From the NCBI GenBank assembly GCA_963977445.1, contig CAXBPH010000070.1, positions 1 to 27,972 on the forward strand: a stretch of DNA of 27,972 nt, read 5' to 3'. Under the pieces are notes generated by a model. It saw only the letters and a program-made list of their open reading frames with translations. It did no database searches and was not told where the DNA came from. The stretch comes from an uncultured bacterium (GTDB lineage: Bacteria; Hydrogenedentota; Hydrogenedentia; Hydrogenedentales; JAEUWI01). The position numbers and the translations under genes are program-made. How positions within the stretch are numbered: the stretch's first letter is position 1; every line of letters begins with the position of its first letter. Positions 1 to 15,340 of this stretch are shown here, in pieces.

Positions 1-51
1 TCCGGCGCACTGGGGCCAAACGTGCATCCGCGTGGATTCGGAGTCAGACTC

Positions 52-414
52 CTAGCGGCGTGGCAGGCCCAGTCTCACCTTACGGGGAGTCTTCTCTTCT
101 GGAAAATACTTAGTAGTCGTTCCACTTGACCACGAGTTCTGCACATCTTCGACGATTGGCCGGACGAAGCGCCCATGCCGCTCGTAGATGCCCAACTCGC
201 CCTTGTCGATGATCACATTACCATCGTGCACCAGGGCAGACTGGCTGCCGCTCACGGTCCGTGCAGGTGGGCTCAAGATGGGTTTTAGAAATTGACCTTT
301 TCGTTCGTACTTACCCAGGGAGCCCTTGTCGACAATATTATTGGCAAAGGCGGTGGAGGTGAGTAGCGTCGCGACAAGCGCGCCTGCGATGGTGTAGGTC
401 AGTGAATGTTTCAT
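52..414 (-). CDS. Small secreted hypothetical protein (120 aa) with an internal duplicated motif
   Basis: ATG at 414 is preceded by the RBS AAGGAGA. Sec-type signal peptide MKHSLTYTIAGALVATLLTSTAFA. Repeat pair IVDKGSLGKYERKGQFLKPI / IIDKGELGIYERHGRFVRPI. Confidence 0.75.
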   Translation of the reverse strand: MKHSLTYTIAGALVATLLTSTAFANNIVDKGSLGKYERKGQFLKPILSPPARTVSGSQSALVHDGNVIIDKGELGIYERHGRFVRPIVEDVQNSWSSGTTTKYFPEEKTPRKVRLGLPRR

Positions 415-589
415 AGTAGTTCTCCTTAAACCCATTGCGGGGTCATTGCGGGTGCCCAAGCGATTCGCCATCGGGATCCCTTTGTCATTGTTCAACGTGG
501 AGGTCATTCCGCGATCCCTCGATTCAGCTCGTTTGCAACCGGGCCTCGGCGATTCTCTGTGTGGTCTCGTTGACTCCAATCGTAACTAC

Positions 590-605
590 GCATCTTCCGT
601 GCCAA
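590..605 (-). promoter_or_regulatory. sigma54 (-24/-12) promoter for the 52..414 gene
   Basis: Minus strand reads TTGGCACGGAAGATGC, with GG-N10-GC spacing, matching the TGGCACG-N4-TTGC consensus. Confidence 0.75.
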
Positions 606-666
606 TCATAGCTAGTGAAAAAAGTGCCCAAAAACGTGGGGATTGTGAAGATTCGGAGAGCAGCCG

Positions 667-707
667 CAGCATAGATTCTATCCACACCGTGATTAGTTTC
701 TGATCTA
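667..707. promoter_or_regulatory. Putative tandem enhancer (UAS) sites
   Basis: CAGCATAG-ATT-CTATCCAC (667-685) and GTGATTAG-TTT-CTGATCTA (689-707), 22 bp apart, upstream of the promoter at 590-605. Confidence 0.55.
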
Positions 708-1031
708 TTCGAACAGCTCACCGCACTCAATACATAACATGGTCTCTCTTTTACTGGCGTATGCACCACGCTGAATATGAAGTCGTCATCACACTTCGGG
801 TAGACATGCTTCACTTATCCATTCTTGCCTCACCTCATCGTTGGCCAAGTCCAAATCCGTTTTACTTCTTGTCACGGCACAGTGCCTCCATCAAGTTCTC
901 GTAGATGTGCTTCTCATGGGACGTGCGACTTCACGGGCAGGCAGACGGGGCGCAGGGGTTGCTGTATCTGCGAATAAGGAGCGGCCCGCGTTCGCTTGTG
1001 CAAACCACAAAACGTTTCGCCAGGCCGCTGG

Positions 1032-1072
1032 GTGGTCAGAAAGGAACGCGGTCGTGTACAGGAACTTTCCTG
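1032..1072. promoter_or_regulatory. Putative tandem enhancer (UAS) sites
   Basis: GTGGTCAG half-site (1032-1039) and GTGTACAG-GAA-CTTTCCTG (1054-1072), 22 bp apart, about 70-110 bp upstream of the promoter at 1143. Confidence 0.5.
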
Positions 1073-1142
1073 CGGGCTACGCTTTAGGCGCTACGCCAGG
1101 ACTTCAGGCATTGAATTCAGGGGGCTTGCAGGAAGCACGAGG

Positions 1143-1158
1143 TTGGCACGGTTGATGC
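1143..1158 (+). promoter_or_regulatory. sigma54 promoter for the STAS gene
   Basis: TTGGCACGGTTGATGC with GG-N10-GC spacing, 75 bp upstream of the ATG at 1234. Confidence 0.75.
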
Positions 1159-1233
1159 GTATTCCAAGCAACAGAACCGAACAACGACACCGATACTTCG
1201 GCCGGGATTCGCCGGAATGGAAAGGAGTGCATC

Positions 1234-1572
1234 ATGAAAACTCAAGGGTTAGTAATGATCGAACCTCAAAAAACCGGCTTTCTGGCAACAATCCAGACCG
1301 ACCGTATCGTGACAGATGGTACGATTCACGAAATTCACCAGGAACTCCAAGAATACGTGAACGCACATCCGGGAACCGTGCTCCATCTTGATATGTCGAA
1401 TGTCCAACGCTTCTCCTGCGCGGCCCTGCCCGGCTTGCTTGACCTACAGCAAGCGCTCCGCGAAACAAACGGCGCTCTTCGATTGAGCGGCCTACGTGGA
1501 AACGTGCGAAAGTGCATTAGACTTACGGGGATGGAAAACGTGTTTACGTTGGAGCACCGCCATGCGCACTGA
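1234..1572 (+). CDS. STAS-domain protein (anti-sigma factor antagonist-like)
   Basis: 112 aa with RBS AAAGGAG. The pattern LHLDMSNVQRFSCAAL..LL.LQQ.L....G.LRLSGL...VRK.I.LTGMENVF is typical of SpoIIAA/RsbV-like STAS proteins. Confidence 0.85.
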   Translation: MKTQGLVMIEPQKTGFLATIQTDRIVTDGTIHEIHQELQEYVNAHPGTVLHLDMSNVQRFSCAALPGLLDLQQALRETNGALRLSGLRGNVRKCIRLTGMENVFTLEHRHAH

Positions 1573-1992
1573 ATTAAATGCTCGCAACTCCCAAGGAAAT
1601 TCCGATACGACAAGGACGGCACGTAGCTTCATCATCGATGCGCCGGTATTGTTCTGGTTCCCGCCACCTATGGTTCTGACCTCATCCTTCGATTGGGCCA
1701 ATTTGCTGGAAGCGGGGCACATGATACCTCGTTTCCATTTTGCACGGAAGAACCCGACTCATCCCGCAATAGTAAGTCGAGATCATGGGTCCTGCACCCA
1801 ATCCACGATTATTTTCAACCGGTAGCTGTTGCCCAGAAGGCCTTATGGCTGCCCTCGATTTAACTTCGGCACCGTAGTGAGTTCCTGGCCCCCCTCTTAT
1901 GTGGCCGGCAGCGGTACGGGTTTCGTTGTCCCCCCCCAGGTACGCGAAACAACCGCCGCGCCGGCTGCGCCATATTCAGGCCAAAAAAGAAA

Positions 1993-2046
1993 CTGACCAC
2001 TCACATGGTCTGTTGCTGACCAGTTAAGTGGTCAGCTTCTTTCTCC
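1993..2046. promoter_or_regulatory. Putative enhancer (UAS) array
   Basis: CTGACCAC (1993-2000), ATGGTCTG-TTG-CTGACCAG (2005-2023) and GTGGTCAG-CTT-CTTTCTCC (2028-2046), with 23-bp periodicity. Confidence 0.6.
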
Positions 2047-2141
2047 ATTTACCGGTGACCGGACAGATTGTTTATAGGCCCCGGCTGCTTAAGCCATTTA
2101 AGTCTTAAAGCTTATGCGTATTCCGTTTATTTTCACACTTC

Positions 2142-2158
2142 TCGGATCAATTCTTGCT
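2142..2158 (+). promoter_or_regulatory. Weak candidate sigma54 promoter upstream of the DUF1559 gene
   Basis: TCGGATCAATTCTTGCT has GG-N10-GC spacing, a perfect -12 element (TTGCT) and a poor -24 element. It lies about 100 bp downstream of the 1993-2046 array. Confidence 0.35.
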
Positions 2159-2498
2159 GCGAAATAACAGACCGACAGCGTTATTAAAACGCGTGTCTTT
2201 GATCTGGCTTTCGTGTGCGAATAGGTGTGTCGTTCCATGCTTCAGATCTGGACCCGTGCCTGTCGCTAACGGCCTGTATACAGGGTCGAGAGAGGAGGTA
2301 GTGGGCGAATTAACATATAGGGAGGTTTTCAATTTTCATGTCTGTTCCTGCCCGTGAGCAATCGCCAATACGGTAGTGAGGCGGTCTTTGTGACTGTCTC
2401 CTATTGGAGAGATTCGCGGAAACTCAAACATGGGCGTGGGTGCGTTGCTGCCTGGAGGGCGGTCGTGCCTCGCGTCCTCACCTCAGGGTGAAGGAAAA

Positions 2499-3428
2499 AT
2501 GAGAAGACGTGGCTTTACGCTTATAGAACTCCTGGTCGTTATCGCAATCATCGGCATATTGGCCGCAATACTCCTGCCCGCTCTGGCGCGCGCCCGAGAA
2601 GCGGCACGCAGGGCCTCCTGCCAGAACAATTTAAAACAGTGGGGTCTGGTGTTTAAAATGTTCGCAAATGAGTCGAGCGGTGAGCGCTATCCCCATACCC
2701 AGTTGTTTTACGACGACCCCTACAATCCAAGCGAAGAAGTCTGGGGAAAAATGGGCCCGGACTCTTCCCAAATTTATCCTGAATACGTGACGGATGTGAA
2801 GATTGGGCATTGTCCCTCGGACTCGAGCGGCAGCCAGGACGGCTCCAAGGAAGCCATGCTCTCTCCGGTGGACAATACAGATGTGGGCGATGGAACCTGG
2901 TGTACCAATCTGAATATATGCCAAGTGGAGATGATTCAGTTTGGCCCCGGAAGAGGCGGATTGGGCGATTTCAGTTATAAGTACCTTCCGAAACTTTTGA
3001 AGGCCGAGTGGATAGCCGATTCGGACGGAAACGATGGAGCGGCAGAAGCGATGTCCGAAAGCGTCACTGTAGTCGGGCGGAACGCGGACGTCAGAATCGA
3101 TCTGACGGGTGCCGCATGGAGCGCCACAGTTAGCGCCCAGCACCTGCGCGAAGGCATTGAACGCTTCCTCATCACAGACATTAATAACGCGGCGGGTTCC
3201 GCGCAAGCGCAAAGCACGATTCCGCTCATGTGGGATTCCGCGCGCGCCACGAAAACATACGGGTCCGACGGAAACTTTGCAGACTTCAACCACGTACCCG
3301 GTGGCAGCAATATACTGTATTTGGACGCCCACGCCTCTTTCGTAAAATACCCGGCGGAACATACGCAATCAACTTGGCCCCTGTCCCGTGTGTCGGTGGA
3401 CAAGACCAATAGCGATCTCGCCTGGTAA
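2499..3428 (+). CDS. Prepilin-type N-terminal cleavage/methylation protein, DUF1559 (SBP_bac_10) / H-X9-DG family
   Basis: N-terminus [47 protein letters not shown], internal CPSD, and C-terminal [18 protein letters not shown] at 2499 follows AAGGA. Confidence 0.92.
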
Positions 3429-3455
3429 CGCTTTAACCCGCACGAGAGCATCCCG

Positions 3456-3481
3456 CCAGGAAAGGCCTCGGTCTTTCCTGG
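3456..3481 (+). terminator. Stem-loop downstream of the DUF1559 gene (possible terminator)
   Basis: CCAGGAAAGGCC-TC-GGTCTTTCCTGG inverted repeat. There is no clear U-tract. Confidence 0.4.
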
Positions 3482-3537
3482 ACGTTGGGGCGCGCCCGCC
3501 CTGCTCTTGCATTCGGCCCCCATGTTGCCTGCAGTCG

Positions 3538-3576
3538 GTGGTCAGCACGTGAGGATAGTGGACAGGAACTGTGCAC
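3538..3576. promoter_or_regulatory. Putative tandem enhancer (UAS) sites
   Basis: GTGGTCAG (3538-3545) and GTGGACAG-GAA-CTGTGCAC (3558-3576), 80-120 bp upstream of the promoter at 3656. Confidence 0.65.
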
Positions 3577-3655
3577 CTGACATTTCCAGCACCGATAACA
3601 GGTGGCCTATGTCCACACAGTTAGTAGAATTCACTGCGTTTTTATAGCTGCAACT

Positions 3656-3671
3656 TTGGCACAGTTCATGC
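3656..3671 (+). promoter_or_regulatory. sigma54 promoter for the triple-YHS-like gene
   Basis: TTGGCACAGTTCATGC(T) with GG-N10-GC spacing. Confidence 0.75.
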
Positions 3672-3753
3672 TAAAGCTACGTGTGATGACATGTAGTATT
3701 TTCACGCGCATGTTGCTATATAGAAACCCCTTCAACCGAATAGAGGTACGACA

Positions 3754-4497
3754 ATGAAGTCTTTAAATTTACTAACCCCCCTCCTTGCTACGATCCTCGG
3801 AAGTATTGGCATGTTTCCCGCAGCGGCCGCCGCAGAGAAGTCCGACGGCCATGACGTAGTTGGCGATCCCTATCCCCTGGCTACCTGTCCGGTCACCGGT
3901 AAAGCTTTGGACGCGATGGGCGAGCCGATTATCAAGGTCATCAACGGCCGGGAGCTTCGATTCTGTTGCGAAGGTTGCCCGCCCAAGGTGGAAGCAGAGC
4001 CCGCGAAATACCTTGAGAAGGTCGATGCGGCCATCGCCGAACTCCAACGTCCCTTCTACCCCTTGGAACGCTGTATTGTTTCGGGCGAAGAACTTGGTTC
4101 CATGGGCAAGCCGCTGGAATTGATACATGGAAATCGACTCGTCCGGCTGTGCTGCGCGGGATGCGTAAAGAAGTTTGAAGCAGACCCCGCGTCGTTTCTT
4201 TCGAAGATTGACGAAGCCGTCGTCAAAGCGCAGAAGGAATCCTATCCGCTGGATTTCTGTATCGTATCGGGTGACAAGCTCGGTGGCGATATGGGCAAAA
4301 CAATCGATGTGACCATCGGCAATCGCCTTTATCGCGTTTGCTGCAAGGGCTGCATCAAGTCGCTTCACGAGACTCCATTGAAGTACCAGAGCATGCTCGA
4401 CGACGCGCTGGCCGGAAAACCCGTGAAGCGCCCTGAAGGCTCCGGTTCGAAAGAGACGGCAAAAGGCCATGGTGATCACGAACACGGCGATCACTAA
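3754..4497 (+). CDS. Secreted Cys-rich protein with three YHS/TRASH-like repeats and a His-rich tail (putative metal-binding protein)
   Basis: Signal peptide ending in a poly-Ala run. Three copies of YPL..C.V(S/T)G..L...MG......(G/N)R..R.CCxGC. C-terminal GHGDHEHGDH. RBS GAGGT. Confidence 0.85.
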   Translation: MKSLNLLTPLLATILGSIGMFPAAAAAEKSDGHDVVGDPYPLATCPVTGKALDAMGEPIIKVINGRELRFCCEGCPPKVEAEPAKYLEKVDAAIAELQRPFYPLERCIVSGEELGSMGKPLELIHGNRLVRLCCAGCVKKFEADPASFLSKIDEAVVKAQKESYPLDFCIVSGDKLGGDMGKTIDVTIGNRLYRVCCKGCIKSLHETPLKYQSMLDDALAGKPVKRPEGSGSKETAKGHGDHEHGDH

Positions 4498-4536
4498 TGC
4501 CTTCGGCCCCAACGGGCCATAGAGTTATCCACAGCG

Positions 4537-4567
4537 GTGGCCCGACAGTAATGTTCTGTCGGGCCAC
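4537..4567. terminator. Likely intrinsic terminator between convergent genes
   Basis: Perfect 12-bp inverted repeat GTGGCCCGACAG-TAATGTT-CTGTCGGGCCAC followed by GTTTCATTTC. Confidence 0.65.
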
Positions 4568-4649
4568 GTTTCATTTCGGAAGCACCCATGCTGGTTAAGA
4601 AAAATTGGGATTGGGACCTTGTCTGCTTTCCCAAGGGACCGCACAGACA

Positions 4650-6002
4650 TTACCCACCTGGCGTCGGCCTTATTAATCCATAGTCCTCGATTTTTTTCCG
4701 GAGCGTCACACGCGATATCTCAAGGATCCCTGCCGTGCGCTTGATGTTCCAGTTCGTAGAGAGCAGCGCCCTGCCGACGTAGTCTTTTTCCGCCTCGCGC
4801 AATGGCTTTATACTTGCCGAAAATTCAGCCGCCGGCGGGGTCTGCCCCATCGATGCCAGAACCACTTCTCTGGTGAGGATCGGAATGTCGGCAAGCAAAA
4901 TGGCACGGGTTAACACGTTGCTGAGTTCACGGATATTGCCCGGCCAATCATAGGCCATCAAACACTGAAGCGCCTTATCGTCGATTCCATGAAATTCTTT
5001 GTGCAACTCTTGCGTGATTCGCTCGAGGATGCTGCGTACCAATACCGGTATGTCGGATCGTCTGTCCCGAAGGGACGGTACACGAATGGTCGAAACGGCC
5101 ATTCGATAGTAAAGATCCTCCCGGAATCTTTCCGTGTCTATCATTGCCCTCAAATCGCGGTGGGTAGCAGCAACAATACGCGCATGAAATGGCACGGGTT
5201 TTGTGCTGCCTACGCGCTCAAACTCCTTTTCTTGAAGGACCCGAAGAAGCTTTGCTTGAAGATCGTAGGACATATCGCCAATTTCATCGAAGAAAATCGT
5301 CCCGTTGCCGGCGGCTTCCAATTTCCCCGCCTTATTCGTGTCGGCCCCCGTAAATGCCCCTTTCACGTATCCGAAAAGTTCACTTTCCAAGAGGGTAGCC
5401 ACCACGGCGGAGCAATTTACCGCGACGAACGGCGTGTTTGGGCAACTCGTATTGTGCAGCGCCCGGGCCACGAGCTCCTTGCCCGTACCGGTTTCCCCCT
5501 GGATGAGTACGGGAATAGGACTATCCGCAACGCGGGCAACTTGCTTCAAAACCTCGATAATGCCAGGATGGGCCCCGATAATTTCGTAGGGTCCTTGCTG
5601 AGCAGTGGAACCGATGGGTTCCGAATGCATATTGGAGACGTTTGAACGTTGCTTAGCGGCCTTTTCGACGGTCAGGATGACGGCATCCAAATCTAAGGGC
5701 TTTCGGATATAGTCAAAAGCGCCCAATCGTACCGCGTCTATCGTGGACTTCGAATCCTGTACGGCCGTAATCATGACCGTTAACGTATTATTGCCACTGT
5801 TTTGGAAATTCCGCAGGATTTCGATGCCGGTCGTATCCGGGAGACCGAGATCGATAAATGCCAACTCACAAGTACCTTCGTTGAGGTGGGTCAGACCTTC
5901 CTGTCCCGTGAAAAACACCTGGACGTCATGGCCAAGCCGCTGCAGGTGAATCTGAAGCGAGCGGCACAACGCTCTATCATCGTCGATTACGGAAATTTGC
6001 AT
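4650..6002 (-). CDS. sigma54-dependent NtrC/AtoC/ZraR-family response regulator (REC + AAA+ + Fis-type HTH)
   Basis: Receiver motifs VIDDD and FIDLGLPD, Walker A GETGTGKE, GAFTGA, FFDEIG, WPGNIREL and a C-terminal HTH NIKRTAGILEISRVTLRKKI. Start taken at MQISV (6002). Confidence 0.95.
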   Translation of the reverse strand: MQISVIDDDRALCRSLQIHLQRLGHDVQVFFTGQEGLTHLNEGTCELAFIDLGLPDTTGIEILRNFQNSGNNTLTVMITAVQDSKSTIDAVRLGAFDYIRKPLDLDAVILTVEKAAKQRSNVSNMHSEPIGSTAQQGPYEIIGAHPGIIEVLKQVARVADSPIPVLIQGETGTGKELVARALHNTSCPNTPFVAVNCSAVVATLLESELFGYVKGAFTGADTNKAGKLEAAGNGTIFFDEIGDMSYDLQAKLLRVLQEKEFERVGSTKPVPFHARIVAATHRDLRAMIDTERFREDLYYRMAVSTIRVPSLRDRRSDIPVLVRSILERITQELHKEFHGIDDKALQCLMAYDWPGNIRELSNVLTRAILLADIPILTREVVLASMGQTPPAAEFSASIKPLREAEKDYVGRALLSTNWNIKRTAGILEISRVTLRKKIEDYGLIRPTPGG

Positions 6003-6070
6003 GATATCAACCCAGAAGTTCCTTGCCTGGCCCGGAGACGAAAACACGGTCTACAATCGTTTGTGTCAGT

Positions 6071-6086
6071 GCAAGATCTGTTCCAA
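6071..6086 (-). promoter_or_regulatory. sigma54 promoter directly upstream of the response regulator
   Basis: Minus strand reads TTGGAACAGATCTTGC(A), with GG-N10-GC spacing and a perfect -12 element. Confidence 0.65.
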
Positions 6087-6161
6087 CCCAACATACTTCC
6101 TGCGTAACTGCTTTAACTCCCATGCTTTGCGAATATTTATTCACTTCCAGCGAACGTGTGA

Positions 6162-6201
6162 TTGGCACGCTTCAGACCACAGGTGGTTAGTATCTGACCA
6201 C
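6162..6201. promoter_or_regulatory. Putative tandem enhancer (UAS) sites
   Basis: TTGGCACG-CTT-CAGACCAC (6162-6180) and GTGGTTAG-TAT-CTGACCAC (6183-6201), 75-115 bp upstream of the 6071-6086 promoter. Confidence 0.6.
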
Positions 6202-6223
6202 AGTTTAGCACGCCAAATGAGAC

Positions 6224-8029
6224 TTAGCGCGGGATCTCGCTGTTCGGATGGGGATGCTGCGGGAGGGTAATCGTGAATATGGCGCCAGCCGTTTGGCCAT
6301 TTTCGGCGCTTATTTGCCCCGAATGGAGACCAATAATCTTTTTCACATTGGCGAGACCCAACCCGATTCCTTCAGATTTTGTTGTAAAAAAAGGTTTGAA
6401 AAGCATCTCCAGCTGCTCCTCACGAATGCCCGCTCCTCTATCGATGACCTCGATAAGCGTAGTTCCACTGGACAGGCCTCCAGAACGCGCGTGGATTTCC
6501 ACCTGCGATCCTTTGGGGGAAGCTTCGACCGCGTTCCGCACCAGATTGACCAGTACCCGTGTGAATTGCTCAACGTCGACCCAGATGTCTCCCACCTCGG
6601 GTTGAATCTGGAAATGGACTTCCACTTGACCTTCCAGAGAAGCTCCCCTCAATTCAACAACCACGCCATGGAACAGGGATTCTACATTTACATCCTTCTT
6701 GGTCAGTTTGAGTGGTCGGCCGTATTGCAACAGTTCATTCAGCATGCTCTCCAGGCGAACAAGCTGACTCATGGCTATCTCTGCCAGTTCCAGGTTTTCT
6801 GTATTCTGTTCCACGGAGCGCTGGAGGGCCTGAAAATTCATCTTGACGGAAGAAAGTGGGTTGCGCATTTCATGGACAACCCGGGAGGTGAGTTCCCCAA
6901 CCGTGGCCAAGGTGGCAGATTGGACTAGCTCTTCTTCCTTGTTACGGAGTTCGTCCAGCATCCGGTTGAAGGCACACCGGACTTCCTCCGCTTCCTCCAA
7001 GTTCATTGGGCCAAGCCTTTCGTCGGTATGGCCCTCGGAAATTCGATGGGTCACTGCCGCCAATTGCATCAAGGGTTTGCCCAAGAGCCGGGACAGCCAT
7101 ATGGCCACGAGAATGACGCCCGCCAGAACCACGATAAGCAACAGTACGACCCGGATGAGAAGAGTCCGTACCCACAGCATTGACTCATCCGTATCAACCT
7201 CAACAACAACGGCCCAATCGTAGATCTGAAAAGGTAACGTGACGCCGATGACTTCATGGGAAAAGAAATCATCGTATACATGGACGTTTTCCGTTTTCTC
7301 GCTACCGTGCCATTCGTGTTTTGGGGTTTTACGCTGAGGCAGAAACGCCGTTCTCTTACCGTTTTCAAAGGGCTCCGTCAAAATCCGAAAACTGGAGTCG
7401 ACAATATAGGCCTTTCCCGTCTGCCACAATCCACTGCGATCCTGGAGCAGCGATGTGAGGCTGGCAGTGATGTTCATATTGGCCACCAGGAATCCGGCTA
7501 TTTCCCTGTCGGCTGTCAGGATGGGACTCCCCACATGGATCCCCACTTCGTGATCGTCGTGAATGTGGGCTTCCCCAAAATAAGCCTCCGTTGTATTTTC
7601 CACATGCTCCCGAAAGGCTGGTGTTGCGAAATCGCTGTTCGGGTGGTGCCCCGGCTCCGATTCGGCAACAATGTCCCAGTCCGCGTCGAACACGGTCAGG
7701 CTTTCGTAGGTTTCCCCATGCGACTGACTTTGGAGTATTCGCTCGAGTGCCCTGACTGCGGCAGGAGGTCGCTCGTCCTCGAGCAATTCGACTTGTTCCA
7801 GCATGATTGGCAGGCTCACCAGCGCCGAAATATCGTCGATTCTCTCGTTCAGCCAGGCCGTTATCATGGTGTGGCGTGCCTCCGCGACTGACAGGACGTG
7901 GAGTCGTGTTAAATCCACCACGGCCATGCGGCCACAGTGGTAGCCCTGGTAAGCCACAATGATTAGTGGCACTATTGAAATTAGCGTACACGCGGTGAAT
8001 ACACGGGTACGAAGATTTTTTCCCAGCAT
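6224..8029 (-). CDS. Membrane sensor histidine kinase (His-rich periplasmic Cache-like domain, HAMP, HisKA, HATPase)
   Basis: Two TM segments, H-box VVHEMRNPLS, N-box NLVRNAVEA, G-boxes DRGAGI and FKPFFTTKSEGIGLGL. Confidence 0.95.
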   Translation of the reverse strand: MLGKNLRTRVFTACTLISIVPLIIVAYQGYHCGRMAVVDLTRLHVLSVAEARHTMITAWLNERIDDISALVSLPIMLEQVELLEDERPPAAVRALERILQSQSHGETYESLTVFDADWDIVAESEPGHHPNSDFATPAFREHVENTTEAYFGEAHIHDDHEVGIHVGSPILTADREIAGFLVANMNITASLTSLLQDRSGLWQTGKAYIVDSSFRILTEPFENGKRTAFLPQRKTPKHEWHGSEKTENVHVYDDFFSHEVIGVTLPFQIYDWAVVVEVDTDESMLWVRTLLIRVVLLLIVVLAGVILVAIWLSRLLGKPLMQLAAVTHRISEGHTDERLGPMNLEEAEEVRCAFNRMLDELRNKEEELVQSATLATVGELTSRVVHEMRNPLSSVKMNFQALQRSVEQNTENLELAEIAMSQLVRLESMLNELLQYGRPLKLTKKDVNVESLFHGVVVELRGASLEGQVEVHFQIQPEVGDIWVDVEQFTRVLVNLVRNAVEASPKGSQVEIHARSGGLSSGTTLIEVIDRGAGIREEQLEMLFKPFFTTKSEGIGLGLANVKKIIGLHSGQISAENGQTAGAIFTITLPQHPHPNSEIPR

Positions 8030-8088
8030 TTTATTGCAACCTCTCGTTTAAGTACATCGACGCCTATCCCTGATCCACATCCATGGGA

Positions 8089-8360
8089 CTACTCGGCGCG
8101 CCGGGGTCTGATCAGGTTCCCAACTGCGAAGACCGAACGTTCTCTCATCGTGGCGACAACGAACAGGGGGCCAAGCGTAATCCGTGTACAGTACCCCAGC
8201 CGCCAGAGGAATTCCCAAGACGCCATACAAAATCCAAAAGAGAGCGTGTTCCGAATCGTTGACGATAATCTTCGGCTCCAGGGGTACTTGGTTCGACTTT
8301 TCATGAAGCCCGTGTTATCGCAGTTCACCTTTGGTGCCCAAAGAGGCTATAGCCATAACA
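8089..8360 (-). pseudogene. Frameshifted 3' remnant of a heavy-metal P1B-type ATPase (CopA-like)
   Basis: Successive frames give SRRLSSTIRNTLSF / YGVLGIPLAAGVLY / LGPLFVVATMRERSVFAVGNLIR. These match the CopA C-terminus (RLSRATMRNIRQNL..YN.LGIPIAAGVLY..LSP..AAAAM..SSV.V.GNALR). Confidence 0.7.
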
Positions 8361-8408
8361 GGCAGGACATAGTTTCAAGTGGTCTCTATGAATCACAGAG
8401 AGTATCCA

Positions 8409-8424
8409 GCCATAATTGTGCCAG
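8409..8424 (-). promoter_or_regulatory. Candidate sigma54 promoter facing the histidine kinase
   Basis: Minus strand reads CTGGCACAATTATGGC, with GG-N10-GC spacing and a variant -12 element (TGGC). It lies about 150 bp from the 8576-8617 UAS. Confidence 0.45.
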
Positions 8425-8575
8425 AGCCGTGTGCGACTTAGCCGTCAATTTCGCGAGCACCGATCTGACCCATACCGGGAGCGCGTGTATATTTGGTGCC
8501 GTGCGGCGAGATCTATATACTTTAGGGTGAGTGGTAGTCGCTGCCAGCGGTGATTCAGGACCTATCGCCCTTCCG

Positions 8576-8617
8576 CTGGACAGGTTCTGATCAGGTACGT
8601 GGACAGATTCTGATCAC
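8576..8617. promoter_or_regulatory. Tandem enhancer (UAS) sites, best copies of the motif
   Basis: CTGGACAG-GTT-CTGATCAG (8576-8594) and GTGGACAG-ATT-CTGATCAC (8599-8617), 23 bp apart, 110-150 bp upstream of the promoter at 8727. Confidence 0.7.
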
Positions 8618-8726
8618 GTATCGGCCAATCTGAGTGGATTGATGTGTCGCGACCGCTGTCGATACTCCGCCTCCTTGTGTAAAGACGTAATTCGAAAGGA
8701 ATAACACGCGCGATTTGCGAACAACC

Positions 8727-8742
8727 TTGGCATACTAATTGC
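8727..8742 (+). promoter_or_regulatory. sigma54 promoter of the cusB-cusA-OMF-OMF operon
   Basis: TTGGCATACTAATTGC(T), close to consensus. Confidence 0.8.
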
Positions 8743-8876
8743 TGCTTACATCGCAGAATGCGCTTCGGACGATCCATCCAGGAGTCAACCGTTGATTGAG
8801 TCCACCACATACACGCTTTCCACACTTCCAAATTTGCCTGGTGATGCTCGGCAGATTCTTACGGCAGGAGAATAAT

Positions 8877-11363
8877 ATGTTGAAAGACGAGGCATTTAGC
8901 CGACTCCAAACCATGGCTTCCTCTCAAACCCGAGTGATCCTGTTGGTAATCACGGTCTTCGTAATCGGATTTCTTCTGCGAGGTTGTTTTGGCCCCCATG
9001 AGGTAGCATCGACCGACCCCGCGCACTCGGAAGCGACCACCGTGGCACCCACGGTGTGGACCTGCTCCATGCACCCGCAAATACACGCGCCGAAGCCCGG
9101 GCAATGTCCAATATGTGGGATGGACCTGATTCCCCTAAAAGAAGGCGGCGGATCGCAAGGCCCTCGGACCTTTGCGGTCACCGAAGAATCTGCGGCAATG
9201 ATGAATCTCCAGACTGTTCCTGTGGCGCGCAAGTTCGTGGACGCCGAGATTCGGATGGTCGGCAAGGTGGCCTACGACGAAACGCGCTTGACCTACATCA
9301 CCGCCTGGGTCCCTGGCCGCCTCGATAAGCTCTATGTGGATTACACGGGCGTCAAGGTCAATGAAGGCGACCACATGGTCTACCTGTACAGCCCGGAATT
9401 GATCAGTGCTCAGGAAGAACTCCGCCAGGCGAAGAACACGGCGGCCAATTTTACGGACGGCGCCGGGGCGGGCAAAATTGCCCGGGCAACCCTTCAGGCG
9501 GCGCGGGAGCGCCTCCGGTTGTGGGGCTTGACGCCAGAACAGATCGCTACGGCCGAAGGTGGCGAATTCTCCGACCATATTACCATCTATGCACCCACCG
9601 GCGGCACGGTTATCGAGCGCAATGGTCGGGAGGGCATGTACGTCGAAACGGGAACCCGAATCTATTCGCTGGCGGACCTGGATGAAATGTGGGTCATGTT
9701 TGATGCCTACGAGTCCGACCTGCCATGGCTCCGCTACGGACAGCACGTGGCATTCACCACGGAGGCCTACCAGGGCGAGCAGTTCGAGGGCATGATTGTC
9801 TTCATCGACCCCTTTCTCGATCCGAAGACCCGCACCGCTAAAGTCCGAGTAAATGTGTCCAATAAGGACGGTAAACTGAAGCCGGAAATGTTCGCTCGGG
9901 GCACGGTAAATTCCCGAATCGCCGAAGGCGGGCGGGTTGCGGACCCTACCCTCGCCGGAAAGTGGGTGGGCCCCATGCACCCCGAGATCGTCTCTGATGG
10001 CCCTGGTGACTGCCCGATCTGTGGGATGAAACTCGTCCCGGCGACGGATCTTGGCTACGTGGCCGGCGATGATTTGGAAGCCGCCAAGCCGTTGGTAATA
10101 CCTGTCACCGCCGCTCTGGTTACGGGCGCGCGCGCGGTAGTCTACGTGCAGCTGCCAGACATGGAAAAACCCACCTTCGAAGGACGGGAGATCGTGTTGG
10201 GACCCCGGGCGGGCGATTACTACCTGGTCCAGAGCGGCCTCTCCGAGGGGGAGTTGGTGGTCATAAACGGAAACTTTAAGATCGACAGCGCCCTCCAGAT
10301 ATTGGCAAAGCCGAGCATGATGCAGCCCGATGAATCTGGTGACGATGGCGAACTTCACGGCGAGCACAGTGCGCAAGAGCGCTTCGCCGATGCTCCAGCC
10401 TTTCAAGAACAATTGAGTCAGGTGTATGACGCGTACCTCCAGATTCAAGAAGCCCTGGCCGCCGACACACCAGAGGTCGCGACGGCTGCGAGCATTTCCA
10501 TGCAGGAGGCCCTGGGCTTGCTGGACATGGCCCTTCTGGAGGGAGAGGCCCACATGGCGTGGATGCCTCTGGCAAAGAGTATGGATGAGAATCTGGCAGC
10601 GATGTCAGCGGTTGCGGACCTGGAGGCCATCCGGCCCCCCTTCGAGGCCCTGAGTGGCCATCTGACCACGGCCATACGACAGTTCGGGCTGAAGGACGGG
10701 GCACCCGTATTCATTGCCCACTGCCCCATGGCACTCGATGGGAAGGGGGCCAACTGGCTTCAATCCACCGAGAATATTGCCAACCCCTATTACGGGGCGG
10801 CCATGCTCAATTGCGGCGACGTTGTGGAGCAACTAGAGTCGACAACGGAATCCTCCCCGGCGGCCGATGCCACACCCTCGCCCCGGTTTGACGGGGTGCC
10901 CCTCCCATTCCAGGAACAGCTTGCCGGGGTCTACCGCGCCTACTTGCCCCTCCATGCGGCACTCGCAGCGGACGACGCCGACACCGCCAGAACCGCCGGG
11001 ACCACCGCGTTGGAGGCCCTCAAGGCAGTTGATATGAAACTTCTCGAAGGAGAAACCCATATGGCGTGGATGCCCTTGGCAAACGGCCTGGAAGCAAGTC
11101 TGTCCACCATCGTGGCCGCAACGGAAATTGAGGCCATGCGGGGCACCTTCGCAGATGTCGCTTCGCAGATGTCTGATGCGCTCCGACAGTATGGCCAAAA
11201 AGATGGACCGCCAGTTTTCCTGGCCCACTGCCCCATGGCACTCGATGGGAAAGGGGCCAACTGGCTTCAATCCACCGAGGAAGTCACCAATCCCTACTAC
11301 GGCGCTGCCATGCTCAATTGTGGTGACATCGTGGAAGAAATTAATTCGGTGGTTGCGCAATGA
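8877..11363 (+). CDS. cusB: CusB-like RND periplasmic adaptor with two heavy-metal-binding (xPMHP..CPICGM) domains and two tandem DUF3347-like domains
   Basis: RBS AGGAG before ATG 8877. Motifs WTCSMHPQ..CPICGMDL, YSPELISAQEE, DPKTRTAKVR, LKPEMF and GPMHPEI..CPICGMKL. Two copies of AHCPMALDGKGANWLQST...NPYYGAAMLNCG. Confidence 0.9.
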   Translation: MLKDEAFSRLQTMASSQTRVILLVITVFVIGFLLRGCFGPHEVASTDPAHSEATTVAPTVWTCSMHPQIHAPKPGQCPICGMDLIPLKEGGGSQGPRTFAVTEESAAMMNLQTVPVARKFVDAEIRMVGKVAYDETRLTYITAWVPGRLDKLYVDYTGVKVNEGDHMVYLYSPELISAQEELRQAKNTAANFTDGAGAGKIARATLQAARERLRLWGLTPEQIATAEGGEFSDHITIYAPTGGTVIERNGREGMYVETGTRIYSLADLDEMWVMFDAYESDLPWLRYGQHVAFTTEAYQGEQFEGMIVFIDPFLDPKTRTAKVRVNVSNKDGKLKPEMFARGTVNSRIAEGGRVADPTLAGKWVGPMHPEIVSDGPGDCPICGMKLVPATDLGYVAGDDLEAAKPLVIPVTAALVTGARAVVYVQLPDMEKPTFEGREIVLGPRAGDYYLVQSGLSEGELVVINGNFKIDSALQILAKPSMMQPDESGDDGELHGEHSAQERFADAPAFQEQLSQVYDAYLQIQEALAADTPEVATAASISMQEALGLLDMALLEGEAHMAWMPLAKSMDENLAAMSAVADLEAIRPPFEALSGHLTTAIRQFGLKDGAPVFIAHCPMALDGKGANWLQSTENIANPYYGAAMLNCGDVVEQLESTTESSPAADATPSPRFDGVPLPFQEQLAGVYRAYLPLHAALAADDADTARTAGTTALEALKAVDMKLLEGETHMAWMPLANGLEASLSTIVAATEIEAMRGTFADVASQMSDALRQYGQKDGPPVFLAHCPMALDGKGANWLQSTEEVTNPYYGAAMLNCGDIVEEINSVVAQ
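10716..11279 (+). repeat. Intragenic tandem duplication (period 507 bp) inside cusB
   Basis: 10716-10772 and 11223-11279 are identical at 56 of 57 nt. Confidence 0.9.
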
Positions 11364-14300
11364 CCGAGAACAACGTGAATTCAGCGTCACGGCGCTCGCC
11401 CATCGATGCCCTCATGCTCTTCTGCCTGAACAACAAGCTGATCGTTTTTCTGCTGATCCTGTTCGCGGTCCTCTGGGGTGTCATGACGGCCCCCTTCGAC
11501 TGGGAATTTGAATGGATGCCCCGGGATCCCGTGGCTGTGGATGCCATCCCGGACATCGGCGAGAACCAGCAGATCGTCTTCACCGAATGGATGGGCCGGT
11601 CCCCCCAGGACGTGGAAGATCAGATTACTTATCCCATGACGGTATCCCTGCTGGGCCTGCCCGGCGTGAAAACCGTGCGCAGCTATTCCTTTTTCGGCTT
11701 TTCCACCATCTACATCATTTTTGAAGAAGGGGTGGAGTTTTATTGGTCGCGCAGCCGGGTGTTGGAGAAGCTGAACAGCCTCCCCCCCAATACCTTGCCC
11801 GCTGGCGTGCAACCCATGCTCGGCCCCGACGCCACGGCATTGGGCCAGATCTATCAATACACCCTCGAAGGCCAAGATCCCGACGGCAACCCCACAGGCG
11901 GGTGGGATCTGCACGAGCTTCGAACCGTCCAGGATTGGTATGTGCGGTATGCGCTGTTGGCATCCGGTGGGGTCAGCGAGGTGGCCTCGGTGGGAGGCTT
12001 TGTTCAGGAATACCAAATCGATGTGGATCCCGATGCCATGCGGGCCTACGGCGTAACCTTGGACGAGATTTATAACGCGGTGCGGAAGTCCAATGTGGAC
12101 GTGGGCGCGCGTACCATCGAGATTAATCGCGTCGAGTATGTGATCCGAGGCCTCGGCTTCATCGAGAATATCGAAGACATACAGAAGTCTGTCGTCAAAG
12201 TCCAGGACAACGTGCCCATCCGCTTATCGGAAGTGGCCAACGTCACCTTGGGCCCGGCCCTCCGCCGTGGTGCGCTGGACAAGTCGGGCGCGGAGGCGGT
12301 CGGCGGCATTGTGGTGGTGCGCTACGGGGAGAACCCCCTGGCGGTCATCAAGAAGGTAAAGGCAAAGATTGCGGAGATTCGGCCCGGGATGCCCACGAAG
12401 GCCGTCGTCGATTTTGCGCTGGCAGACCTGGATACGGTCGAGGCCTTTGCGGAGGCGGGCGCCTTTTCGGCCTTCGGCGACGGGGGCGCGCTGAATCAGG
12501 ATGGATGGATGGCGTGGCTGGGCGCCCACGAGCGCAGCGAATGGCCCTCTTGGGTAACTACGAGCAAAGTAACCGTCGTACCCTACTATGACCGCGCGGG
12601 GCTTATCTACGAGACCCTGGGCACACTGGAGACCGCCCTACTCGAAGAAATACTGATTACGATCATCGTAGTCCTTGTCATGGTGCGGCACCTGCGCAGC
12701 GCCGTGCTCATAAGCGGCTTACTTCCCCTGGCCGTACTCATGTGCTTCATCGGCATGAAATACGCCGGTGTTGACGCCAATATTGTGGCCCTGTCTGGCA
12801 TTGCGATCGCCATCGGCACCATGGTCGACATGGGCATCGTCATGACGGAAAACATCCTCAAGCACCTCGACGAAGCGCCGCCAGAGGAGGATCGAAAAAA
12901 CGTTATCTTTCGCGCCTCCAGCGAGGTAGGCAGCGCCGTCTTGACCGCCGTGGCCACTACGGTGGTAAGTTTCCTGCCCGTATTCACCATGATCGGCGCG
13001 GAGGGCAAGCTGTTTAAGCCCCTGGCCTTTACCAAGACCTTCGCGCTGATTGCCGCCGTGGTGGTGGCGCTCACCATCATCCCACCCCTCGCCCACATCC
13101 TGCTCGCGGGCCGGGTACGCACACCCCGATTCACCCAAGTCTTGTGGTCGGCCGTTATTGTCGGCGGCCTGGTCGTCGGTGTTTTCTTCTCGTGGCTCGT
13201 AGCGCTCATTCTCATCGCCATTGGCGCGTACCAGCTTGCCCAGCCACGGCTGTCGGAGCGGGCGGTACGGCTTGGTCCGCTCTTCGCTACGGGCCTGGTC
13301 ACGCTGGTTGTCGGGGTATTCCTCACCCGGCACTGGATGCCCCTGGGTGCCCATCAGGGCTTGCCTTACAATCTTATCTTCGTCGTGATTGTCCTTGGAG
13401 GACTGCTGGGCTTTTTCGAGTTTTTCCAGTACATCTACCCCCCGCTTTTGCGGTGGTTTCTCGATCACAAACTTGTCTATCTTTCGGGCCCGGCCCTGGT
13501 CGTCCTCTTCGGACTCTGTGCCTGGCTCGGGCTCAACCAGGTCTTCTTCTTTGTGCCCAACTTCGTGACACAAACCCGTGCGTGGAGCGCCGCGGCGCAC
13601 ACCTTTCCGGGCTTCGGAAAAGAATTCATGCCCGCACTGGATGAAGGTTCCTACCTGTTCATGCCGACCACCATGCCCCACGCGTCCATCGGTGAGGCCC
13701 TCGACGTGCTCCAGTTGCAGGATCAGGCCATCGGCGCCATACCCGAAGTGGCGTCTGTGGTGGGTAAGATTGGCCGTGCGGACAGTCCCATGGATCCCGC
13801 GCCGATCTCCATGATCGAGACCATTATCAACTACAAACCCGAATACCGGACGGACAAGGATGGGCATCGGGCCACGTTCCGATATGACGTAAAGACGGAT
13901 GCCTATTCACGGGACGAAAACGGGGAACTCATCCCCGATCCAAACGGCCGTGTCTACCGGGAGTGGCGGGAACACATCCATACGCCGGACGACATCTGGG
14001 AAGAAATCCTGGCGGCGGCGGAAGTTCCCGGTACCACCTCCGCCCCCAAGCTCCAACCCATCGCGGCGCGCATTGTCATGTTGCAGAGCGGCATGCGAGC
14101 GCCCATGGGACTGAAGGTCAAGGGCCCCGATTTGGCGACCATCGAAAAGGTCGGTTTCGAGATGGAGCGGCTGCTCAAGGAGGTTCCGAGTATCGAGGCC
14201 TCCGCCGTAATCGCGGACCGTATTGTGGGCAAGCCCTACCTGGAAATCGATATCGACCGGGAGGCCATCGCCCGCTATGGCATCACCATCCGGGACGTGC

Positions 14301-15340
14301 AGGATGTCATCGAAGTGGCCGTCGGCGGCAACACCATTACCACGACGGTGGAAGGGCGCGAGCGCTATCCTGTTCGGGTCCGCTACCTCCGCGAACTGCG
14401 GGACGACAGCGAGTCCCTGAAGCGCATACTCGTGGCGGCACCCGATGGCACCCAGGTTCCTTTGGGGCAGGTGTCCACCATCAATTTCGTGCGCGGCCCC
14501 CAGGCGATCAAGAGTGAAGATACCTTCCTGCTGGGTTACGTGTTGTTCGACAAGAAACCCGGCGAGGCCGAGGTGGATGTGGTGGAAGATGCGCAGCGTT
14601 ATCTGCAGGAGAAAATCGACTCAGGTGAATTGGTATTGCCCGCCGGAGTGAGCTATGTATTTTCCGGCAACTATGAGAATCAGATCCGCGCGGCCAAAAC
14701 CCTGGCCATTGTCCTTCCGCTGGCCCTTTTTGTCATTTTTTTGCTGCTGTATTTGCAGTTTCGTTCGACGCTCACGACCGGGCTGGTTTTCTCGGGCATC
14801 TTCCTGGCCTGGTCCGGCGGCTTCGTGCTGATCTGGTTCTATGCCCAGCCCTGGTTTCTGGACGTGAACGTGCTCGGCATCAACATGCGGGAGCTATTCG
14901 GCGTCCACACCATCAACATGAGTGTTGCCGTGTGGGTCGGTTTCCTGGCCCTTTTCGGCATCGCTTCCGATGACGGTGTCGTCATGGCAACCTACCTGGA
15001 TCAGAGTTTCAAACGGTTGAAACTGGATAGCATCGCGGCCATCCGGCAGGCAACGGTGGAAGCGGGACAACGCCGTATCCGTCCCTGCCTGATGACCACC
15101 GCCACGACGATTCTGGCGCTGATTCCCGTACTTACCTCGAACGGGCGGGGCTCGGACGTCATGATACCCATGGCGATTCCCGCCTTCGGTGGCATGGCCA
15201 TTGAATTGCTGACGCTGTTTCTCGTGCCCGTACTCTACTGCTGGCTCGGTGAGGTGCGCTTTAAATTAGGGTACTTGCGGCCCGAAGAATTGTCTGGTGT
15301 GGCCGCGAACGTCCCTGGGGACGAGGGAGACGAATCATGA
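11360..15340 (+). CDS. cusA: CusA/CzcA-family heavy-metal efflux RND permease (CusA/SilA type)
   Basis: Motifs VDAIPDIGENQQIVFTEWMGRSPQDVEDQITYP, LGPDATALGQI, GIAIAIGTMVD, EFMPALDEG and RIRPCLMT. ATGA overlap with cusB. Confidence 0.95.
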   Translation: MTENNVNSASRRSPIDALMLFCLNNKLIVFLLILFAVLWGVMTAPFDWEFEWMPRDPVAVDAIPDIGENQQIVFTEWMGRSPQDVEDQITYPMTVSLLGLPGVKTVRSYSFFGFSTIYIIFEEGVEFYWSRSRVLEKLNSLPPNTLPAGVQPMLGPDATALGQIYQYTLEGQDPDGNPTGGWDLHELRTVQDWYVRYALLASGGVSEVASVGGFVQEYQIDVDPDAMRAYGVTLDEIYNAVRKSNVDVGARTIEINRVEYVIRGLGFIENIEDIQKSVVKVQDNVPIRLSEVANVTLGPALRRGALDKSGAEAVGGIVVVRYGENPLAVIKKVKAKIAEIRPGMPTKAVVDFALADLDTVEAFAEAGAFSAFGDGGALNQDGWMAWLGAHERSEWPSWVTTSKVTVVPYYDRAGLIYETLGTLETALLEEILITIIVVLVMVRHLRSAVLISGLLPLAVLMCFIGMKYAGVDANIVALSGIAIAIGTMVDMGIVMTENILKHLDEAPPEEDRKNVIFRASSEVGSAVLTAVATTVVSFLPVFTMIGAEGKLFKPLAFTKTFALIAAVVVALTIIPPLAHILLAGRVRTPRFTQVLWSAVIVGGLVVGVFFSWLVALILIAIGAYQLAQPRLSERAVRLGPLFATGLVTLVVGVFLTRHWMPLGAHQGLPYNLIFVVIVLGGLLGFFEFFQYIYPPLLRWFLDHKLVYLSGPALVVLFGLCAWLGLNQVFFFVPNFVTQTRAWSAAAHTFPGFGKEFMPALDEGSYLFMPTTMPHASIGEALDVLQLQDQAIGAIPEVASVVGKIGRADSPMDPAPISMIETIINYKPEYRTDKDGHRATFRYDVKTDAYSRDENGELIPDPNGRVYREWREHIHTPDDIWEEILAAAEVPGTTSAPKLQPIAARIVMLQSGMRAPMGLKVKGPDLATIEKVGFEMERLLKEVPSIEASAVIADRIVGKPYLEIDIDREAIARYGITIRDVQDVIEVAVGGNTITTTVEGRERYPVRVRYLRELRDDSESLKRILVAAPDGTQVPLGQVSTINFVRGPQAIKSEDTFLLGYVLFDKKPGEAEVDVVEDAQRYLQEKIDSGELVLPAGVSYVFSGNYENQIRAAKTLAIVLPLALFVIFLLLYLQFRSTLTTGLVFSGIFLAWSGGFVLIWFYAQPWFLDVNVLGINMRELFGVHTINMSVAVWVGFLALFGIASDDGVVMATYLDQSFKRLKLDSIAAIRQATVEAGQRRIRPCLMTTATTILALIPVLTSNGRGSDVMIPMAIPAFGGMAIELLTLFLVPVLYCWLGEVRFKLGYLRPEELSGVAANVPGDEGDES

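Follow-up and report, generated by a model that had tools for sequence, protein, structure and literature searches.

In the textbook arrangement a CusCBA-type efflux pump is under OmpR-type control, as in Escherichia coli, where CusRS has an OmpR-family regulator and works with sigma-70. NtrC at glnAp2 and other enhancer-binding proteins (EBPs) with a Fis-type helix-turn-helix (HTH) domain bind as dimers to tandem palindromes, about two helical turns apart and ~100 bp upstream of a -24/-12 promoter. In EBPs of the NtrC type, open-complex formation is ATP-dependent and proceeds through the GAFTGA loop. The subject here is a 27,972-bp stretch of DNA from an uncultured bacterium, the whole of contig C70 and hereafter called the window, in which genes for an NtrC-family activator and a sensor kinase lie among a CusCBA-type efflux operon and other genes preceded by tandem palindromes and -24/-12 elements. 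The genome under study, G000, consists of 7.1 Mb in 464 contigs (C70, C192, C250 and so on) with 56% G+C, and the closest relatives recovered through a kinase search are public metagenome-assembled genomes (MAGs) labelled Candidatus Hydrogenedentota. Judging from the sequence, the activator encoded at 4650-6002 likely uses the tandem 19-bp palindromes as its upstream activating sites, and it would thereby drive sigma-54 promoters that belong to a metal-stress regulon. What is seen directly is the sites, how far they are enriched, coupled to -24/-12 elements and conserved, and which genes lie around them.

The initial annotation of this DNA had contrasted the locus with E. coli CusRS. The contrast is correct, but the arrangement is not new in kind: sigma-54 metal two-component systems such as ZraSR and CorSR are known (PMC3707914). 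None of the 19 open reading frames (ORFs) of the window that were scanned encodes an OmpR-type regulator. The pump is of the same kind as that of CusRS-CusCFBA, with a CusA-family transporter, a CusB-like adaptor and outer-membrane factors. Compared with the E. coli pump, however, the adaptor has extra HMBD and DUF3347 modules and the transporter has two insertions (its stretches ~347-403 and 588-751 have no counterpart in E. coli CusA).

The ZraPSR (HydHG) system of E. coli and Salmonella resembles the present one as a metal-activated sigma-54 two-component system with positive autoregulation. It has a secreted CpxP/ZraP-like target, a family to which a protein encoded on C192 shows a sub-threshold match (PF13801). 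Both regulators of the window miss the NCBIfam equivalog cut-offs, the activator with 347.7 bits against 760 for ZraR and the kinase with 164.6 against 479 for ZraS. The E. coli ZraSR regulon is given as zraP, zraSR and perhaps mgtA in the available text of one account (PMC7657598), whereas at least eight promoter regions, including that of a CusCBA-type pump, are assigned to the regulon here. According to the accessible part of a 2025 survey, the EBP genes bearing sigma-54 promoters in Planctomycetota "correspond to ZraR" (PMC12316311). In the portion available of a paper on the D. vulgaris sigma-54 regulome, metal stress appears only in passing.

CorSR of Myxococcus xanthus, compared here by its published description, likewise combines a periplasm-sensing kinase with an activator composed of receiver, sigma-54 and HTH_8 domains (PMC3707914). 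The available text of that description reports four presumed sigma-54 promoters within the copper cluster (curA), regulator genes included, and genes for YHS-bearing P-type ATPases nearby. The targets differ, being a multicopper oxidase, CopA and a cytochrome, and the same portion of the paper mentions neither an RND pump nor an enhancer motif (PMC3707914). The host lineage, Myxococcus, is also different from that of the window; a kinase homologue with 36% identity occurs in a Myxococcales MAG. In the relative G008, the closest complete genome, an extracytoplasmic function (ECF) sigma factor gene and the gene of a P-type ATPase that combines HMBD and YHS modules (9131-13996 of its locus L024) stand directly upstream of the kinase and activator genes on the same strand, which recalls CorE/CopA/CorSR of M. 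xanthus.

The site geometry is like that of NtrC at glnAp2, whereas the recognition sequence (GTGGTCAG-N3-CTGACCAC), the signal and the set of targets differ. A search of open-access literature text found no paper describing the operator or the regulon, and among the matches listed the half-site strings matched only eukaryotic papers. To our knowledge, no transcription factor has been characterized in the phylum of the window. The regulon and its operator are apparently undescribed so far. Essentially, a canonical enhancer/sigma-54 regulon is newly delineated in an uncultured lineage, with a new operator and some targets of unknown function; its regulatory logic is itself canonical, and as a system it is of a known kind. 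The result is a regulatory map for an uncultured phylum that includes the operator, the promoters, the regulator and no fewer than eight transcription units, in which a CusCBA-type pump would be under sigma-54 control rather than the textbook OmpR-type control. Proteins of unknown function, foremost a small secreted protein with two repeats, are flagged as candidate metal-stress proteins, and the module of operator and promoter could serve as a metal-responsive part for heterologous hosts.

The palindrome was defined as the 19-mer GTGGWCAG-N3-CTGWCCAC (GTGGWCAGNNNCTGWCCAC), with mismatches counted over 16 positions, and the promoter pattern as TGGCAC-N5-WTGC with at most one mismatch. The half-site GTGGWCAG occurs ten times in the window against 1.6 expected, a count that none of 100 shuffles reached, and seven of the ten lie in the intergenic sites listed by the initial annotation. 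Thirteen palindromes had been listed there. Twelve of these 19-mers match GTGGWCAGNNNCTGWCCAC with one to five mismatches, but the one at 1032 is a left half-site only, and the site given as 1993 is the right half of a 19-mer starting at 1982. The spacing of 20-23 bp holds (22, 22, 23/23, 20, 21 and 23 bp as measured), and the palindromes therefore lie on one helix face. Measured between the middle of a site and the promoter's 3' end, the distances, put earlier at 60-150 bp, span a slightly wider range: 86-166 bp, with 176/199 bp for the element at 8409, which shares sites 8576/8599 with the promoter at 8728. As noted before, the right half of the window lacks the motif, with only isolated matches of at least four mismatches and no tandem.

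The promoter pattern matches the window 11 times against 4.55 expected, and one shuffle in 100 reached 11. Six of the seven promoters claimed earlier are among these matches with zero or one mismatch, their GG and GC 10 nt apart in a TGGCAC-N5-TTGC context; the seventh, at 2143-2157, stands at chance level, and no better candidate was found there on either strand. The remaining five matches (5190, 14446, 15392, 18601 and 25557) have no palindrome nearby. Enrichment over background, on which the initial annotation had made its proposal depend, is clear: both the palindrome and the -24/-12 elements are far above chance. Sigma-70-like promoters number ten in positions 1-9200 against 6.2 expected, and none is positioned to serve the target genes. 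A scan of the whole window with Rfam gave no family at the gathering score, so the long leaders are left without explanation. The features, among them the ten genes in the leftmost 18 kb, are listed in Table 1.

Table 1. Features of the window and related loci. Positions refer to the window unless a contig or locus is named; PWM, position weight matrix score; ranks of pairs are genome-wide.
Feature	Position	Strand	Spacing	Remarks
Small secreted protein	52-414	-		Signal peptide; two IDKGxLGxYERxGRFxxP repeats; conserved Trp
-24/-12 promoter TGGCACGGAAGATGC, small secreted protein	590-604	-		Exact match; PWM>=11 site upstream
Tandem sites 667-685, 689-707	667-707		22 bp	5+5 mismatches; PWM 11.4+14.5; pair 8th
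Weak tandem, half-site 1032-1039 and site 1054-1072	1032-1072		22 bp	PWM 1.7+12.1; pair 16th
-24/-12 promoter TGGCACGGTTGATGC, STAS gene	1144-1158	+		Exact match
STAS-domain protein (anti-sigma antagonist-like)	1234-1572	+		PF13466/PF01740
Triple sites 1982-2000, 2005-2023, 2028-2046	1982-2046		23 bp	PWM 11.6/16.9/11.0; pairs 5th and 7th
Doubtful -24/-12 element CGGATCAATTCTTGC, before DUF1559 gene	2143-2157	+		3 mismatches
Protein with prepilin-type N-terminus and DUF1559	2499-3428	+		PF07963, PF07596
Tandem sites 3538-3556, 3558-3576	3538-3576		20 bp	4+1 mismatches; pair 4th
-24/-12 promoter TGGCACAGTTCATGC, YHS gene	3657-3671	+		Exact match
Secreted protein with three YHS/TRASH Cys modules	3754-4497	+		His-rich tail
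Hairpin terminator between convergent YHS and activator genes	4537-4567	+		12-bp stem and T-rich tail
NtrC-family enhancer-binding response regulator (activator)	4650-6002	-		Receiver, Sigma54_activat, AAA_lid, HTH_8
-24/-12 promoter TGGAACAGATCTTGC, activator gene (putative autoregulation)	6071-6085	-		1 mismatch; same layout in G008, G006 and G051
Tandem sites 6162-6180, 6183-6201	6162-6201		21 bp	Pair 3rd
Membrane sensor histidine kinase	6224-8029	-		HATPase_c, HisKA, HAMP; dCache_1 below Pfam cut-off
-24/-12 element TGGCACAATTATGGC, facing kinase gene	8409-8423	-		1 mismatch; leader ~370 nt
Tandem sites 8576-8594, 8599-8617, between divergent promoters	8576-8617		23 bp	3+1 mismatches; best pair, PWM sum 45.2
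-24/-12 promoter TGGCATACTAATTGC, efflux operon	8728-8742	+		1 mismatch
CusB-like adaptor, 828 aa	8877-11363	+		2 HMBD and 2 DUF3347
CusA-type heavy-metal RND pump, 1326 aa	11360-15340	+		
Two tandem outer-membrane efflux proteins	15337-18371	+		PF02321 in both
Pair and TGGCACAAAACCTGC before gene for secreted protein	C192: pair 41/63, gene 401-1246			MGSMGDK-type Met-rich repeats
Pair and TGGCACGTCAATTGC before operon	C250: pair 4854/4875	-		Outer-membrane factor, 225-aa His-bearing protein, CusB/HlyD-type adaptor
Small two-repeat protein family in relatives	L024 14878-15249, 16688-17125; L026 862-1437; L028 11425-11808; L031 12633-12989			
Variant palindrome loci (Planctomycetota)	L089 5251-5289; L091 6540-6633			One record titled Candidatus Uabimicrobium sp.

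The palindrome is rare in the genome as a whole. Only four 19-mers with at most one mismatch exist in 7.1 Mb, three in the window and one on C192, and tandem pairs with a mismatch sum of at most seven number six (four in the window, one each on C192 and C250), against none in three block-shuffles. A position weight matrix (PWM) was trained on 24 distinct sites, all from relatives and none from G000, and then scanned across G000. Six of its eight best single matches fall in the same three loci, and the highest score of all, 25.2, belongs to site 6183. The eight best tandem pairs with a spacing of 20-23 bp (8576, C192:41, 6162, 3538, 1982, C250:4854, 2005 and 667; score sums 26-45) are exactly those proposed, six in the window and one on each of the other two contigs, and the next pair scores 17.8. 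Additionally, seven of 161 promoter-like elements genome-wide have a site of PWM score at least 11 at 60-260 bp upstream, where ~0.7 would be expected, and all but one of these seven belong to the three loci.

The description of the regulon as self-contained is thus not right, because motif pairs, promoters and metal-type genes also occur on C192 and C250. The ZraP-like, Met-rich periplasmic protein of C192 and the operon for an outer-membrane efflux protein (OEP) and HlyD-type adaptor on C250 are predicted to be further targets; the match of the former to PF13801 (ZraP/CpxP-like) has an E of 3.8e-5 and 24.3 bits, below the cut-off of 29.2. Among weaker matches, C200 has at 1914-2042 a tandem with a PWM sum of 16.7, placed 119 bp upstream of TGGCACGAATTGTGC. 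No ORF of at least 90 aa was found downstream of this element on the same strand; the tandem may belong to a small gene or an RNA, or be due to chance. A further match of the genome scan is C114:17606. Two high-scoring single sites, C91:19229 and C273:7304, lie inside long ORFs with no promoter nearby and were taken as chance.

Conservation of the motif upstream of orthologues had been named as a check by the initial annotation, and the same motif is indeed present at the orthologous kinase/activator loci of relatives. Full-length kinase orthologues were found in 13 of 60 relatives searched, with 35-68% identity, and these 13 loci were combined with four more Hydrogenedentota-labelled loci into a set of 17 (247.7 kb). 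This set contains 25 sites with at most three mismatches, compared with 2.3 expected at the G000 genome rate. A correctly oriented -24/-12 element lies at 40-300 bp from 21 of the 25 sites (13% for random positions), and 18 of the 25 are 80-125 bp upstream of such an element (2.5% for random positions). The motif is kept across genera and families, and the flanks are not. It clusters at the kinase locus, which holds three of the eight matches in G008 and both matches in G051. A helical-phasing rule for the distance between site and promoter was considered and rejected: distances in relatives cluster near 84, 96, 108 and 119 bp, but the G000 values (84-134) do not follow.

The genes behind the motif are also shared. 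A site precedes the activator gene in G000, G008, G006 and G051. In G051, which belongs to another family, the motif stands before CusB(HMBD, DUF3347)-CusA-OEP, and OEP operons follow it in G008, G006, G003 and G007. G003 has an orthologue of the YHS/TRASH protein of the window behind motif and promoter, and in G020 the target is a membrane protein with DUF2231 and YHS. Behind the motif in G008 (twice), G001, G004 and G011 lies the small secreted protein with two repeats. The kinase of G051 is preceded by a STAS gene that has a -24/-12 element and a weak site. No DUF1559 gene stands beside the motif in those relatives' loci that were annotated.

A wider set of kinase homologues comprised 80 loci, of which 33 were scanned; the other 47 matched the catalytic half of the kinase only. 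Outside Hydrogenedentota-labelled loci, the GTGG...CCAC palindrome was found at only two Planctomycetota loci among the 33. Both records have tandem copies of the variant GTGGAAAG-N3-CTTTCCAC, flanked by divergent -24/-12 elements and situated ~0.4-1.7 kb upstream of a kinase homologue with 26-27% identity. Tentatively, the system may be seen as one of an as yet undescribed, multi-phylum family of sigma-54 metal-sensing two-component systems, in which a QGYHC kinase and an activator with a GTGG...CCAC-armed operator (GTGGTCAG in Hydrogenedentota-labelled loci, GTGGAAAG in the two Planctomycetota records) might also command an envelope programme of IDKGxLGxYERxG secreted proteins, a partner-switch protein of the STAS type and a DUF1559 protein resembling a pseudopilin. 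The QGYHC/His44 pattern is matched, too, by kinase homologues from MAGs labelled Thermodesulfobacteriota, Myxococcales, Holophagae, Acidobacteria and Planctomycetota.

Every domain of an NtrC-type protein is present in the activator. Its receiver (PF00072, E 1.1e-19) carries the phospho-acceptor Asp51 in FIDLGLPD, its AAA+ domain (PF00158, E 6.7e-66) has a Walker A of GETGTGKE and a GAFTGA loop, and its C-terminal Fis-type HTH (PF02954, E 1.2e-10) reads ISRVTLRKKI. The solved central domain of ZraR is matched with an E of 2.7e-78. In the kinase, two elements are the same in all 13 orthologues: QGYHC (28-32), which comes just behind the first membrane helix, and H44. The leader of the kinase gene holds a small ORF (8098-8313 on the minus strand), which was dropped as a candidate gene; it is not conserved and has no similarity to the ORF preceding the kinase of G006. 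The genome has one rpoN (PF04552, E 3.9e-64, contig C291).

The genome also encodes ~25 EBPs, counted as proteins whose sigma-54 interaction domain is complete, and with so many the assignment to the local activator needs support. The proposal that the local NtrC-family regulator and its kinase are the controllers is supported by four ties read from the DNA: of the genome's four best sites, three stand beside the two genes, the motif recurs at orthologous pairs, the distance to the promoter is fixed, and the motif co-varies with the HTH. Where the linked activator of a relative has an (S/T)RVTLR recognition helix, a motif site is present in every case (12/12), compared with only 3/22 loci with an SPTTLR or SRPTLR helix that have a site at three mismatches or fewer. 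One of these three is a Planctomycetota variant locus; at the second variant locus an activator was not found. This co-variation points the right way, favouring the local activator.

For binding, signal and activation we infer the following course. The kinase would sense periplasmic metal through its His/Cys-bearing outer domain and phosphorylate Asp51 of the activator. Activator dimers would then fill two or three palindromes 20-23 bp apart and form an ATPase ring, which would loop to sigma-54 polymerase ~85-165 bp downstream and open the promoter. In the window, the targets would be the CusB-CusA-OEP-OEP pump, the triple-YHS protein, the small two-repeat protein, the STAS protein and the activator gene itself. 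The kinase gene is probably a target and the DUF1559 gene possibly one.

Several observations weigh against this reading of the palindromes. The STAS pair 1032/1054 is weak and ranks only 16th in the genome. Elements as good as 2143-2157 turn up in the window at a rate of roughly one per 870 nt of strand, and because they are so frequent this one carries no weight alone as a promoter of the DUF1559 gene. The initial annotation had listed that gene as a possible target, which the strong triple site favours but the promoter, no better than chance, does not. Four of the 17 loci (L035, L036, L061 and L065) have no coupled site, and the binomial P values for promoter coupling overstate the evidence because the relatives are kin. 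Across the genomes of five relatives, single sites with at most two mismatches show no enrichment over a control with the reversed pattern (8 and 7, 5 and 4, 8 and 5, 2 and 0, 4 and 5); only the clustering at the locus and the promoter coupling are specific there. The association of HTH and motif is confounded with phylogeny, and assignment to the local activator among ~25 EBPs rests on proximity, conservation and HTH co-variation.

The palindrome might be the operator of another DNA-binding protein, either another EBP or a metal repressor or activator of the classical kind whose gene lies elsewhere, with the local pair controlling only part of the regulon. The abundance of EBPs, the pairing of palindrome and protein from sequence alone, and the motif loci on C192 and C250, which have no adjoining regulator, would agree with this. 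It is nevertheless improbable: the sites lie 83-134 bp upstream of the -24/-12 elements, which is the geometry of an enhancer and not of operator overlap, the site before the local activator's own gene is kept in four genomes, the motif follows the RVTLR helix, and no other regulator gene is common to the loci annotated. It is extremely improbable that the palindromes belong to a dispersed repeat or a family of terminator-like hairpins with no regulatory role and with promoter-like elements nearby by coincidence. Bases 2015-2036, a half-site pair inside the triple site, were indeed also flagged as a terminator-like hairpin, and the genome holds other short dispersed palindromic repeats, but in 7.1 Mb the motif is confined to about nine places, each of them intergenic and upstream of a gene, its coupling to promoters is far above random, and it has outlasted its flanks across genera and families.

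Gene content, from which alone the metal response is read, suggests that Cu(I)/Ag(I) is most likely the signal of the kinase. The pump scores 755.5 bits against TIGR00914 (CusA/CzcA), above the cut-off of 701.45, and among solved structures it is nearer to E. coli CusA (E 2.4e-186), its best relative, than to ZneA (3.2e-117). In the alignment with E. coli CusA, its FMP, SMI and VML fall with YMP, EMV and DML, and the three Met positions are those that we take to be the Cu(I)/Ag(I) methionine triad of CusA. Soft metals would also be in keeping with the modules of the YHS, HMBD and Met-rich kinds. There is some chance, though a smaller one, that the circuit works as proposed but responds to a divalent metal of the Zn/Cd/Co type or to general envelope stress. 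The ZraP/CpxP-like protein of C192 and the His-rich tails of the YHS protein and of the 225-aa protein of C250 would also fit Zn, and the STAS, DUF1559 and small secreted targets belong to no metal-related family. In addition, the available text of one account views E. coli ZraSR partly as an envelope-stress system and describes responses of ZraR to non-metal stresses (PMC7657598). This alternative is opposed by the affinity of the pump to CusA, with Met at the three aligned triad positions, by the Met-rich repeats of the C192 protein, and by the YHS and HMBD modules together with the copper-type P-type ATPase in G008.

The identities given earlier to the targets were borne out by domain searches, which recovered the CusB/CusA/double-OEP operon, the secreted two-repeat protein, the STAS protein and the triple YHS/TRASH protein. 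The small two-repeat protein is the most conserved target of the regulon, with orthologues behind motif and -24/-12 element in four relatives. It has no Pfam or NCBIfam match, and a search of 5.8 billion proteins returned only ten clusters, all unnamed. An AlphaFold2 model built from 13 sequences (mean pLDDT 63, pTM 0.23) was too poor for a fold search. Atlas look-alikes of the protein all stay under a score of 0.9, and the PcoE-family cluster that ranks 10th (0.86) is no more than a lead.

Some neighbouring genes outside the window deserve mention. On C192, the gene for the ZraP-like protein is followed by one (1559-3595) for a membrane FAD/NAD/2Fe-2S protein with a Met/Gly-rich periplasmic N-terminus, which may be a metal reductase, and then by a multihaem cytochrome gene. 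The OEP/HlyD operons under the motif in G008 (L024 2070-3656, minus strand) and on C250 (370-3057) are without a recognizable inner-membrane pump. The G008 operon encodes a 528-aa His/Thr/Glu-rich lipoprotein with a C-terminal YHS/TRASH module, and that of C250 has a small His-bearing membrane-anchored protein in place of a pump. Finally, a dispersed repeat of ~57 bp with the core palindrome GGAGTCAGACTCC is found both at the start of the window (1-57) and on C250 (5202-5258). The core is present in 15 copies in the genome, two of which lie less than 150 bp from a contig end.

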